The notes below the pieces were generated by a model that made no database searches, had not been told where the DNA came from, and saw only the letters and a program-made list of their open reading frames with translations. A stretch of 64,000 nucleotides of DNA from Escherichia coli (lineage in GTDB: Bacteria; Pseudomonadota; Gammaproteobacteria; Enterobacterales; Enterobacteriaceae). Shown here one piece after another: positions 26,362-29,405 of the stretch. Made by a program: the position numbers and the translations under genes. Position 1 is the stretch's first letter, and each line of letters opens with the position of its first letter. The stretch lies in assembly GCF_046105845.1 (NCBI RefSeq), contig NZ_CP151004.1; one strand, given 5' to 3'.

Positions 26362-27000
26362 ATGCCCGGGCGCTTTGAACTAAAACCAACCCTGGAGAAA
26401 GTCTGGCACGCGCCGGACAATTTTCTCTTCATGGACCCGCTGCCGCCGATGCATCGTCGGGGGATCATTATTGCCGCCATTGTATTGGTGGTCGGATTTC
26501 TGCTTCCATCTGATGATACGCCCAACGCGCCGGTGGTGACGCGTGAAGCGCAGTTAGATATTCAGTCGCAATCACAACCACCGACAGAAGAACAGCTGCG
26601 GGCGCAATTAGTCACGCCACAAAATGATCCTGATCAGGTGGCTCCGGTCGCTCCAGAACCAATACAGGAAGGCCAGCCAGAAGAGCAGCCGCACCCCCCC
26701 CAAACGCAACCATTCCAGCCAGATAGCGGAATTGATAATCAATGGCGCTCTTACCGTGTCGAACCCGGTAAAACGATGGCACAGCTGTTCCGCGACCACG
26801 GGCTGCCCGCTACCGATGTCTATGCAATGGCGCAGGTAGAAGGCGCGGGTAAGCCGCTGAGTAATTTGCAAAACGGGCAGATGGTGAAAATCCGCCAGAA
26901 CGCCAGCGGCGTGGTGACGGGCTTAACCATTGATACGGGGAATAATCAACAGGTCCTGTTTACCCGTCAGCCGGATGGCAGTTTTATTCGCGCGCGGTAG
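26362..27000 (+). CDS. ytfB: OapA/LysM-like domain cell-division protein YtfB
   Basis: Start set at [10 protein letters not shown] (212 aa), with AGGAGG at 26351-26356. Recognised as YtfB. Confidence 0.88.
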
Positions 27001-27091
27001 ATGAAGGGTCAACCAGAAGCCAGCTAAGGAGCGTCTCTTTGATGACCTTACGTCTGGCTTCCAGTGCCTGGGGTGAAACCATACTGATATG
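26984..27091 (-). pseudogene. ytfA: ytfA 3' fragment, separated from its 5' part by the IS insertion
   Basis: Joining 28840 to 27091 continues the ytfA frame: ...LGLVY|[35 protein letters not shown]. The 35 codons end at TAA 26984-26986. Boundary uncertain by a few nt. Confidence 0.55.
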
Positions 27092-27260
27092 TTGACATCC
27101 TCCACGCCCTGAAGGACGTGGATCCCTGCTACGTTCAGGCTGTCGCCTGAATCATTTCGGTGGGTTCCTGCTTCAACGAGCGGCCTGACTGCACCATCTC
27201 TCCACAGGCAAGAACGGCGTGCCCCGCCGCTAAAATGTTACGAGCGCCGTTTACATCGGC
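27076..27260 (-). ncRNA. Predicted omega-RNA (reRNA) of TnpB: scaffold from the tnpB 3' end plus RE, guide from flanking DNA
   Basis: Inferred by analogy with characterised TnpB systems; there is no direct sequence proof of a transcript. The putative 16-nt guide is CATATCAGTATGGTTT (27091 down to 27076, minus strand). Confidence 0.4.
27102..27121. repeat. RE subterminal imperfect hairpin
   Basis: CCACGCCCTGAAGGACGTGG: CCACG/CGTGG plus CC/GG stems, TGAA loop, C/A mismatch. Same architecture as the LE hairpin. Confidence 0.85.
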
Positions 27261-28343
27261 GTTCGCTGTATATCCACATGCCTGGCATCTGAATTGACTT
27301 TGTGACAGGCGATTTTCTTTCGCTGTATGACCACAGCACGCGCAACGCTGGCTTGTGTACGCTGGCGGAACAGCAAGCACCTGACCGCCACGCCAGAGCT
27401 GCTTGTACTCAAGCTGGCGGCGCATTTCATACCAGCCCTGATCCTGTATCGAACGGTTTAAACCTGATTTTGCCCGGACATTGCGCCCCGGCTGGCTGAC
27501 CGTACCCGCTGCTGACTTTGACATGTTGCTGACCTTCAAATCCTCAATGACTATCATTGCGTGGTTTTTGCTGACGGTCGTTGTGACTTTGTGAAGGTAG
27601 TCCCTGCGGATATTTGCGATACAGGAATGCAGTCGCTGTATTTTGCGTTTCTGCTTCTGCCAGTTGTTGCTGAATTTGACCTTGCGGCTTAACTGTCGCT
27701 GAAGTCTCGCCAGCGTCTTCTGGTTTTTCTGAAAACTGTTTACAGGCCCAAAGACTGTGCCATCTGACAGCGTGGCGAGTTTAGCCACGCCAGCATCCAG
27801 CCCGACCATTGATGCTGAAGGGTGAACCGGAGTTGATACTTCATTTTCAGTCTGAATACTGATGTACCACTTACCGCAGGACTGGCTGACAGTGACATTT
27901 TTCACAACACCCGTGACCTGACGGCTATTCCGGTAGCGCATACAGCCAAGTTTCGGCAGAAAAATACGGCTGTTTTCCTGATCGAGCTTAACGCCCTGCG
28001 GGTAGCGGAATGCATCATTCTGTCCCCGCTTTTTGAATCGGGGAAAAGCAGCCCGCTTCTGGAAGAAGTTTTTGTAAGCCCGCTCAAGGTCTTTCAGTGA
28101 CTGTTGCAATGGCTGTGACGGGGCATCTTTAAGCCATTGCGTTTCAGTGGCATTTTTCCACTCAACCAGCCAGGAAGCCATTTTCCCGTAAGGGATGTAT
28201 TTATTACCGGCCTCATGATTCTCATTCTGAAGCGCCAGAGCACGATTGAAAACGAAACGACATGCGCCTGCGAAGCGCCTCATTTCACACTCCTGTTGAC
28301 CACCTGGTCTTAACTGGAATTTAAATGCCTGTAATCGTTTCAC
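27135..28343 (-). CDS. tnpB: TnpB (IS605 OrfB family), putative RNA-guided DNA endonuclease
   Basis: 402-aa ORF with a GTG start. RuvC-like motifs GLDAG (D183), IVIEDL (E267) and NADVNGARN (D363). Zinc finger CACC...CQAC (C334/C337, C353/C356). Resembles K-12 InsQ/YdcM as I recall it. Confidence 0.9.
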
Positions 28344-28350
28344 AGGTCAA

Positions 28351-28782
28351 ATGATACTTTGGTCTATGAAAAAAGAAACCGATATCCGGCGTGGAAAGCA
28401 TTGTGTTTTCCTGATGCATGTTCACCTGGTCTTTGTCACCAAATACCGACGCCAGATTTTTGACCATGACGCGAAAGAAAAACTACGCACTTACTTTTCA
28501 AAGGTATGTGCTGATTTTGAAGCTGAACTGGTTGAAATGGATGGCGAACCAGATCACGTCCATTTGTTAATTAACTATCCTCCCAAACTGGCGATATCCA
28601 GTCTGGTAAACAGCCTCAAAGGCGTATCGAGTAGGTGACTGCGACGAGATCGACCAGATATTGCAGTCAGGTATTACTACAAAGGCGTTTTGTGGAGTCC
28701 TGGCTATTTTGCCAGTAGCTGCGGAGGTGCGCCAATATCCGCCATCCGTCAATACATTGAACAACAGCAAACACCTGGTTAG
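28351..28782 (+). pseudogene. tnpA: IS200/IS605 Y1 transposase TnpA interrupted by an in-frame TGA
   Basis: HUH motif HVH (H69-H71) lies in the 95-aa ORF. TGA at 28636-28638. The same frame continues LRRDRPDIAVRYYYKGVLWSPGYFASSCGGAPISAIRQYIEQQQTPG to TAG at 28780-28782. The catalytic Tyr (RQYIE) is downstream of the stop. Confidence 0.8.
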
Positions 28783-28803
28783 GTGGAAAACCGCGCCTTA
28801 TAT

Positions 28804-28823
28804 CCCCGCCCTGAAGGACGGGG
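28804..28823. repeat. LE subterminal imperfect hairpin
   Basis: CCCCGCCCTGAAGGACGGGG. It differs from the RE hairpin at two positions that are compensatory in the stem (A/T versus C/G). Confidence 0.85.
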
Positions 28824-28839
28824 TTTTACGGCGCACTGG

Positions 28840-29055
28840 ATAAACCAGGCCAAGCGTATGCTGGTTGATCAAATAATATCCCCCAAGCGCAGCAATATTA
28901 ATATTCACCTGCAATGGGTCGCTATCTGCCTTAAAAATATTGTGTTTCTTCCCTTCATCCAATAATTCCATTAAATGCAAGTGCGCATGATTAATTTCTA
29001 AGAGACGCTGTGATTTTGCATAATGCACACCTTTACTTTGGTTTTCACTATGCAC
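28840..29055 (-). pseudogene. ytfA: ytfA 5' fragment (TetR-family remnant) fused to IS-derived codons
   Basis: The 85-aa ORF (28798-29055) begins at GTG as [14 protein letters not shown]. Its last 13 codons ([13 protein letters not shown]) are read from the IS LE. The frame stays open upstream to a stop at 29182-29184 with no start codon. Confidence 0.6.
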
Positions 29056-29405
29056 AATTTTTAAAAACCTGGGATTAGCAATATAATAACCCCAGGTAAA
29101 ATCGATGATTTTTTCAATGGATTTTTGTGGCTGGTTAACCTGCTGATTAACGAACGCACCGATACCGACAGCGTAGAATAATTACATACCGCACAACAAG
29201 AATGTATGGTGTAAGGCGTTGTCAGTCATCTCCCTCCCTGGATGCATCGTTATATCCGTGATGAGCGATTTTTGATATTAATATCTTTCACCATCCGCTA
29301 TCTTCACTACTTCAGAAAACAAACTTATTTTTATTAATATCGATTATTTATTCTGTGCACATTCAGCTGCGATATTTATAAAAAAATTAAACAGGCAAAA
29401 ATACA

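Follow-up and report, generated by a model that had tools for sequence, protein, structure and literature searches.

The locus described here is very probably a vertically inherited copy of IS609, inserted 3′ of a TTAT within the Escherichia coli pseudogene ytfA, that encodes a canonical TnpB and follows a predicted guide and TAM logic. All positions refer to the window, by which we mean the whole stretch of DNA that was analyzed (64,000 nucleotides). The element and its ends are:

27092 to 28839, minus strand: IS609 element, left end at 28839 and right end at 27092, ends placed using the empty-site allele L002 and independent insertions
28804 to 28823, minus strand: left-end subterminal hairpin, CCCCGTCC-TTCA-GGGCGGGG, read directly from the sequence
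27101 to 27122, minus strand: right-end subterminal hairpin, TCCACGTCC-TTCA-GGGCGTGGA, which is also helix 8 of the predicted RNA scaffold
27092 to 27095, minus strand: terminal TCAA of the right end and right-end cleavage site, which replaces the TAM at the occupied junction

The whole IS609 element spans 1748 bp, belongs to the IS200/IS605 family and is inserted in ytfA, a TetR-like pseudogene, with its top strand corresponding to the minus strand of the window. Over the full 1748 bp it shares 97.4-99% identity with full-length copies that RefSeq labels IS609/insQ, some of which carry the label “IS200/IS605-like element IS609 family transposase”. The ends were set from the empty-site allele, five independent E. 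coli loci (near ytfA, yfaY/yfaV, yeaR/yeaQ, ydcL/ydcO and yedK) and approximately 45 insertions in other genera. The left end begins at the complement of 28839, and each of the five E. coli insertions has TTAT as its left flank, with CC(A/G)GTGCGC directly after it; when 33-34 loci are compared, the motif 5′ of the left end is TTTAY. The right end stops at A27092, reading ...GGAGGATGTCAA on the minus strand, and the same sequence is followed by unrelated DNA in five out of five E. coli insertions. Every right end compared, in the E. coli loci and the other genera alike, terminates in GTCAA with variable DNA after it; this terminus is common to the approximately 45 insertions in Citrobacter, Klebsiella, Yersinia, Serratia, Morganella, Xenorhabdus, Photorhabdus and Erwinia, and also in non-enterobacterial genomes.

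Comparison of the empty and occupied sites, the empty allele reading ...GGTTTAT/CATATCAGTATGGTTTCACC... on the minus strand, reveals a clean 1748-bp insertion after TTAT without target duplication. A conserved short motif on the 5′ side, the lack of a duplication and of terminal inverted repeats, and subterminal hairpins at both ends are the features by which IS200/IS605 insertions are recognized, and this copy has them. The left-end hairpin is kept in homologous elements in which both arms have changed (e.g., CCTCGGCC...GGCCGGGG). The empty/occupied comparison leaves the placement of one G ambiguous, so a boundary of ...GTCAAC with the TAM TTATC was also considered; it was ruled out because the base after GTCAA varies among loci (C, G, G, T, C) and because the left end, with its conserved CC, starts directly after TTAT. 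No second IS609, tnpA or tnpB was found within the 64-kb window. Relative to E. coli strain 1190, the IS shows about as much divergence as its flanks do, which indicates that the ytfA insertion is old and vertically inherited.

The two genes of the element are divergently oriented:

27135 to 28343, minus strand: tnpB (insQ), 402 aa, RNA-guided endonuclease family, identified from its ORF, profile matches and alignment with ISDra2
28351 to 28638, plus strand: tnpA (Y1 HUH transposase), 95 aa, cut short by TGA as codon 96 (28636-28638) of an ORF that ancestrally reached 28782

The tnpB ORF is open from a GTG start, with no frameshifts or internal stops, and its product matches three Pfam domains above their gathering thresholds (HTH_OrfB_IS605, E = 4e-13; OrfB_IS605, E = 5.9e-34; Cas12f1-like_TNB, E = 9.8e-25) as well as the NCBIfam model guided_TnpB (NF040570), with a score of 385.4 bits (cutoff, 100). 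In a phmmer search against PDB sequences, residues 3-376 aligned with ISDra2 TnpB (8bf8/8exa/8h1j; E = 3e-52). The RuvC residues D183 (in GLDAG), E267 (in VIEDL) and D363 (in NADVNG) align to D191, E278 and D361 of ISDra2, and both CxxC pairs of the zinc finger (C334/C337/C353/C356) align as well. In ISDra2 TnpB, cleavage is abolished by the D191A substitution (Karvelis et al., PMC8612924). A preliminary description of this DNA had assigned the ORF to TnpB, called it intact and placed the triad and the zinc finger at these residues. The family assignment, the open frame and the residue positions all hold, and the catalytic residues bear out the word “intact”; what had gone unnoticed is a pair of private substitutions, namely W134C (TGG to TGT, 27942-27944, minus strand) and L300Q (CTG to CAG, 27444-27446, minus strand), at positions occupied by W in 26 of 26 and by L in 25 of 26 close homologues, respectively.

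W134 is also present in ISDra2 and 8iaz and corresponds to W141 of ISDra2, within a conserved LPKLGW motif; a literature search on ISDra2 W141 returned nothing. Judged from these alignments, W134C or L300Q could weaken the protein, and the effect of W134C is uncertain because more distant TnpBs, at 30-40% identity, have W, L, K or E at position 134. Nuclease activity of this W134C/L300Q allele, and any effect in vivo, are inferred. The exact 402-aa protein is found on eight contigs in NCBI, where its name is “RNA-guided endonuclease InsQ/TnpB family protein”. A search of the DNA just upstream of tnpB gave no consensus-like sigma-70 promoter. Only 7 bp separate the ATG of tnpA (28351, plus strand) from the GTG of tnpB (28343, minus strand), and thus each promoter must sit inside the opposite gene. 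A 7-bp stem-loop (28346-28328, minus strand; CCTGTGAAACGATTACAGG) covers the tnpB start codon and could restrict tnpB translation; no clear Shine-Dalgarno sequence is visible in the start region (28328-28351).

The tnpA gene matches Pfam Y1_Tnp (E = 6.9e-28) over profile positions 1-78 of 121 only, and NCBIfam transpos_IS200 with 106 bits. G28637 makes codon 96 a TGA; strain 1190 has a T at this position, which gives TTA and an intact 143-aa protein. The stop precedes the catalytic tyrosine motif (SPGYF, in ...LWSPGYF...), and a TnpA cut before this motif cannot be catalytic. The window copy would thus be unable to excise itself, and any role in retention needs a TnpA from elsewhere in the genome. 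As read from its sequence, the element qualifies as a member of IS200/IS605 by descent, and probably a non-autonomous one.

The same change from TTA to TGA at codon 96 is present at three loci: in the window copy (ytfA), in the K-12-lineage copy at ydcO (L006) and in a yedK-adjacent copy (L007). Other IS609 copies at the ytfA site retain TTA. The window tnpA otherwise resembles that of strain 1190, with S94 where K-12-type copies have G94, so the TGA apparently arose at least twice. A mutational hotspot, selection against TnpA or chance could each account for its recurrence. Gene conversion is an unlikely source of the shared TGA, given the S94/G94 difference two codons away, and no evidence of programmed read-through or recoding at the TGA was found. 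Most of the E. coli copies fetched (L004-L010) have a tnpA that RefSeq treats as a pseudogene, owing to an internal stop, a frameshift or the loss of its normal stop.

By comparison, tnpB is a full 402-aa ORF in eight of nine E. coli IS609 copies. Pairwise pN/pS of tnpB ranges from 0.17 to 0.62 among the nine copies and is ~0.3 for the window copy, which indicates that TnpB has probably been under purifying selection rather than in free decay. In Shigella flexneri and E. coli species-representative genomes (L043, L048-L050, L054, L055 and L080), protein matches to several IS609-related copies are partial or have 57-69% identity, and the ends of the same copies have ~91-95% nucleotide identity, which suggests that tnpB is frameshifted or degraded there.

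The alternative that survives best is that the window copy is a decaying relic, an immobile fossil whose TnpB is inactive or weakened and whose guide/target relation is without present-day consequence. We regard this as possible, though rather unlikely. It would accommodate the premature TGA in tnpA, the age of the vertically inherited insertion, the annotation of tnpA as a pseudogene in many IS609 copies, and W134C and L300Q, which are private, non-conservative and located at positions invariant in the clade. Conversely, TnpB is still full length, with its zinc finger and catalytic triad in place, its pN/pS against the other copies is not near 1, the variation at position 134 in distant TnpBs implies that W is not universally essential there, and the RNA scaffold of the window copy retains all conserved helices. 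Because tnpA decays repeatedly and tnpB stays intact, we also consider, as an improbable case, that selection in E. coli maintains TnpB and its guide RNA for a selfish or host-level role that does not depend on TnpA. If true, TnpB would be a stand-alone allele-drive or “addiction” module that cuts IS-free ytfA alleles arriving by conjugation, transduction or recombination, and the IS-bearing ytfA allele would persist in about one third of the species without transposition.

The canonical reading, in which TnpB is guided by an RNA from its own 3′ end, depends on the following feature:

27092 to 27261, minus strand: predicted omega-RNA (reRNA) scaffold, comprising the tnpB 3′ end and the right end, with an approximate 5′ limit at the first conserved helix

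The minimum-free-energy fold of the 245-nt tnpB 3′/right-end stretch has a z-score of -3.34. Covariation was assessed in an alignment (A1) of the last ~239 nt of 30 homologous elements, whose consensus has 47 pairs in eight helices. In A1, 96.9% of cells are paired, and compensatory (two-sided) changes occur at 17 of the 47 pairs. Sliding the 3′ partners by 1-3 columns lowers these figures to 40-49% and 3-10 pairs, respectively; none of 500 shuffles of A1 reached the observed values. Three helices located inside the tnpB coding region (3, 5 and 7) covary, with double changes at 11 pairs, and a long-range pairing between columns 96-101 and 249-254 is maintained at 100%. The right-end hairpin has compensatory changes at six of its nine pairs across genera, the most of any helix.

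This last result would also be expected if the conserved structure consisted of single-stranded DNA hairpins serving TnpA only, with no guide-RNA scaffold, and the right-end hairpin does resemble that of the left end; in the part of PMC3201880 available, such hairpins are described as a known TnpA recognition element in the IS200/IS605 family. We nevertheless consider this explanation very improbable. Subterminal hairpins alone suffice for TnpA, whereas the covariation extends beyond the right-end hairpin to the helices in the coding region and the fully maintained long-range pairing, and it is this extent that argues for a real RNA scaffold. Weak, sub-threshold Rfam matches to tnpB-associated RNAs cover the same span (HgcC, E = 0.009; RAGATH-18, E = 0.011; sot0042, E = 0.067); as the gathering score was not attained by any Rfam family in this region, these matches serve only as supporting evidence. 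The HgcC and sot RNAs derive from loci overlapping tnpB. Enrichment of non-coding RNAs at tnpB-encoding IS200/IS605 transposons has been reported previously (Karvelis et al., PMC8612924). The alignment supports a putative RNA scaffold of ~170 nt that ends at 27092 and would be followed by a guide derived from the flank. We infer that this omega-RNA is expressed at the ytfA locus; a literature search for a native E. coli insQ small RNA returned nothing.

A third explanation, that TnpB has been domesticated into a TldR-like, RNA-guided repressor of neighbouring genes that is not a nuclease, is the least probable of all. In its favour, TnpB is under purifying selection while tnpA decays, and about one third of E. 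coli genomes have the insertion in a fixed state. It can be rejected because the zinc finger and the whole RuvC triad are intact; TldRs are defined by lost RuvC residues or C-terminal truncation, this protein retains both its triad and its full length and occurs at many unrelated loci, and the guide is ordinary flanking DNA that differs at each insertion locus.

The remaining two features define what the predicted TnpB-RNA complex would recognize:

27076 to 27091, minus strand: predicted 16-nt guide/target CATATCAGTATGGTTT, flanking ytfA DNA, the first 16 nt after the right end
28840 to 28843, minus strand: TTAT, TAM and insertion target (TTTAT with 28844), immediately 5′ of the left end

It has been textbook knowledge since 2021-2023 that the guide is the right-end flank and the TAM is the left-end target motif. 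Since the IS609 ends are fixed from the empty site and from independent insertions, both can be placed, with the predicted guide beginning at C27091 and its 16-nt length borrowed from ISDra2 (PMC8612924). The target occurs once in the 64-kb window, and it is found directly after TTTAT in both empty alleles fetched (L002 and L003); ytfA is truncated in one of them, and in the other the TetR gene is full length. At the occupied junction it is preceded by TCAA rather than TTAT, so the occupied site is protected and self-targeting is not expected. In the available part of PMC12781874 (2026), TTAT is the TAM listed for IS609 TnpB (Table S2), and an IS609-type TnpB was purified and assayed with this TAM; that part gives no outcome specific to IS609. 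The preliminary description had derived the same guide (27091 down to 27076) and a TAM of TTAT or TTTAT, had proposed the tnpB 3′ end plus right end as the source of the guide RNA, and had identified TTTAT followed by CATATCAGTATGGTTT as the uninterrupted ytfA allele. Each of these proposals now has backing, from the right ends of the E. coli and other-genera insertions, the conserved left-flank motif and Table S2, the structured and covarying RNA region in 30 homologues, and the empty alleles of other E. coli, respectively.

Taken together, we propose that a transcript spanning the last ~170 nt of tnpB and the right end would form the folded omega-RNA scaffold and continue for ~16 nt into the flank, yielding the guide CATATCAGTATGGTTT. 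The TnpB-RNA complex would then bind and cut DNA that carries TTAT directly 5′ of this sequence, as ytfA alleles without the IS do, and also the donor joint that excision leaves behind, and repair of the break from an IS-bearing copy would restore the element. This sequence of events corresponds to the homing/retention model, in which the donor joint or empty site is cut by TnpB and recombination restores the element (PMC8612924; bioRxiv 10.1101/2023.03.14.532601). A homing or retention role had been suggested for this locus, and the target logic does fit the published model; what does not carry over is the supply of substrate, as the nonsense-truncated tnpA cannot create the empty site. Without TnpA from another copy, incoming empty alleles would be the sole DNA on which TnpB could act, if it acted on any. 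A self-generated substrate for retention may never arise at the window copy, because tnpA is truncated and there is no second tnpA in the 64-kb window.

Of 5426 complete E. coli genomes, 4858 (~90%) contain IS609 over at least 80% of its length. The occupied ytfA query (IS together with both flanks) is matched to the same minimum extent in approximately 1700 of the 5426, and the joined-flank query is found as a single stretch, over at least 80% of its length, in 3272. Among the same 5,426 genomes, the best match to 26900-29100 has 98.9% identity over 2.2 kb, and the window allele is thus without an exact counterpart in the complete-genome set. The neighbouring genes are cycA, fklB, ytfB, the split TetR/AcrR pseudogene (ytfA), yjfZ and rplI. 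E. coli strain 1190 has an identical arrangement in RefSeq, with insQ and tnpA (“IS200/IS605 family transposase”) at the same site.

In the window lineage, ytfA is an N-terminally truncated pseudogene regardless of the IS. The truncated ytfA is followed by yjfZ (DUF2686) in this lineage (28798-29400; compared with L003 1653-2300). Strain AR_452 (L003) instead has a full-length TetR gene (215 aa), and the genes after it encode a 3-ketoacyl-ACP reductase and a sugar-phosphate isomerase. On this comparison, the region upstream of ytfA is to all appearances a separate replacement polymorphism that is unrelated to the IS.

The mechanism, the family and the IS609 element itself are already known and are annotated in public databases; InsQ is the namesake of COG0675 in its conserved-domain entry. 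The ubiquity and existing annotation of IS609/InsQ agree with the earlier opinion that this is not a new system class. The ytfA guide/target pair, which is newly spelled out here, follows mechanically from the known guide/TAM rule; a literature search for an ISfinder-wide TnpB screen returned nothing. The value of the locus lies in being a precisely mapped native E. coli TnpB locus, with its ends, its TAM (TTAT) and a 16-nt target, for which natural empty and occupied ytfA alleles exist in thousands of genomes. It could serve as a natural system for the retention/homing model in its own host, and could help to ask why tnpB outlives tnpA.

The closest known relative considered is the K-12-lineage IS609 (H74/L006; insP/tnpA and insQ/tnpB, by ydcO), which has 97.7% nucleotide identity to the window copy over the full 1748 bp. 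The two copies are alike in their divergent tnpA and tnpB, their 402-aa TnpB, their left and right ends, their TTAT target and TCAA terminus, and the TGA at tnpA codon 96. They differ in locus (ydcL/ydcO versus ytfA), and hence in guide, and by ~1-2% point differences, which include the W134C and L300Q substitutions private to the window copy.

The ISDra2 TnpB of Deinococcus radiodurans has the same domain order as the window TnpB, the same RuvC D/E/D residues and the same CxxC...CxxC arrangement across the aligned region (residues 3-376, E = 3e-52). In both elements the TAM is the transposon target motif, which is TTAT in the window IS609 and TTGAT in ISDra2. The window tnpA is divergent from tnpB, whereas the ISDra2 pair is co-directional and overlapping, and the two TnpBs also differ by a 15-aa insertion after the RuvC glutamate. 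The ISDra2 guide RNA is made from the tnpB 3′ end and the right end, with ~16 nt of flank as the guide (PMC8612924), and the same logic is predicted here.

Like Helicobacter pylori IS608 and the ISGst elements, the window copy is a member of the peel-and-paste family, with a tetranucleotide target 5′ of the left end. The target motifs differ in their last base (TTAC in IS608 and ISGst, TTAT in the window IS609), and the TCAA terminus of the window copy presumably matches the IS608 right end. In the retention model, TnpB cuts the donor joint (Meers 2023, bioRxiv 10.1101/2023.03.14.532601); the window copy's own TnpA is truncated.
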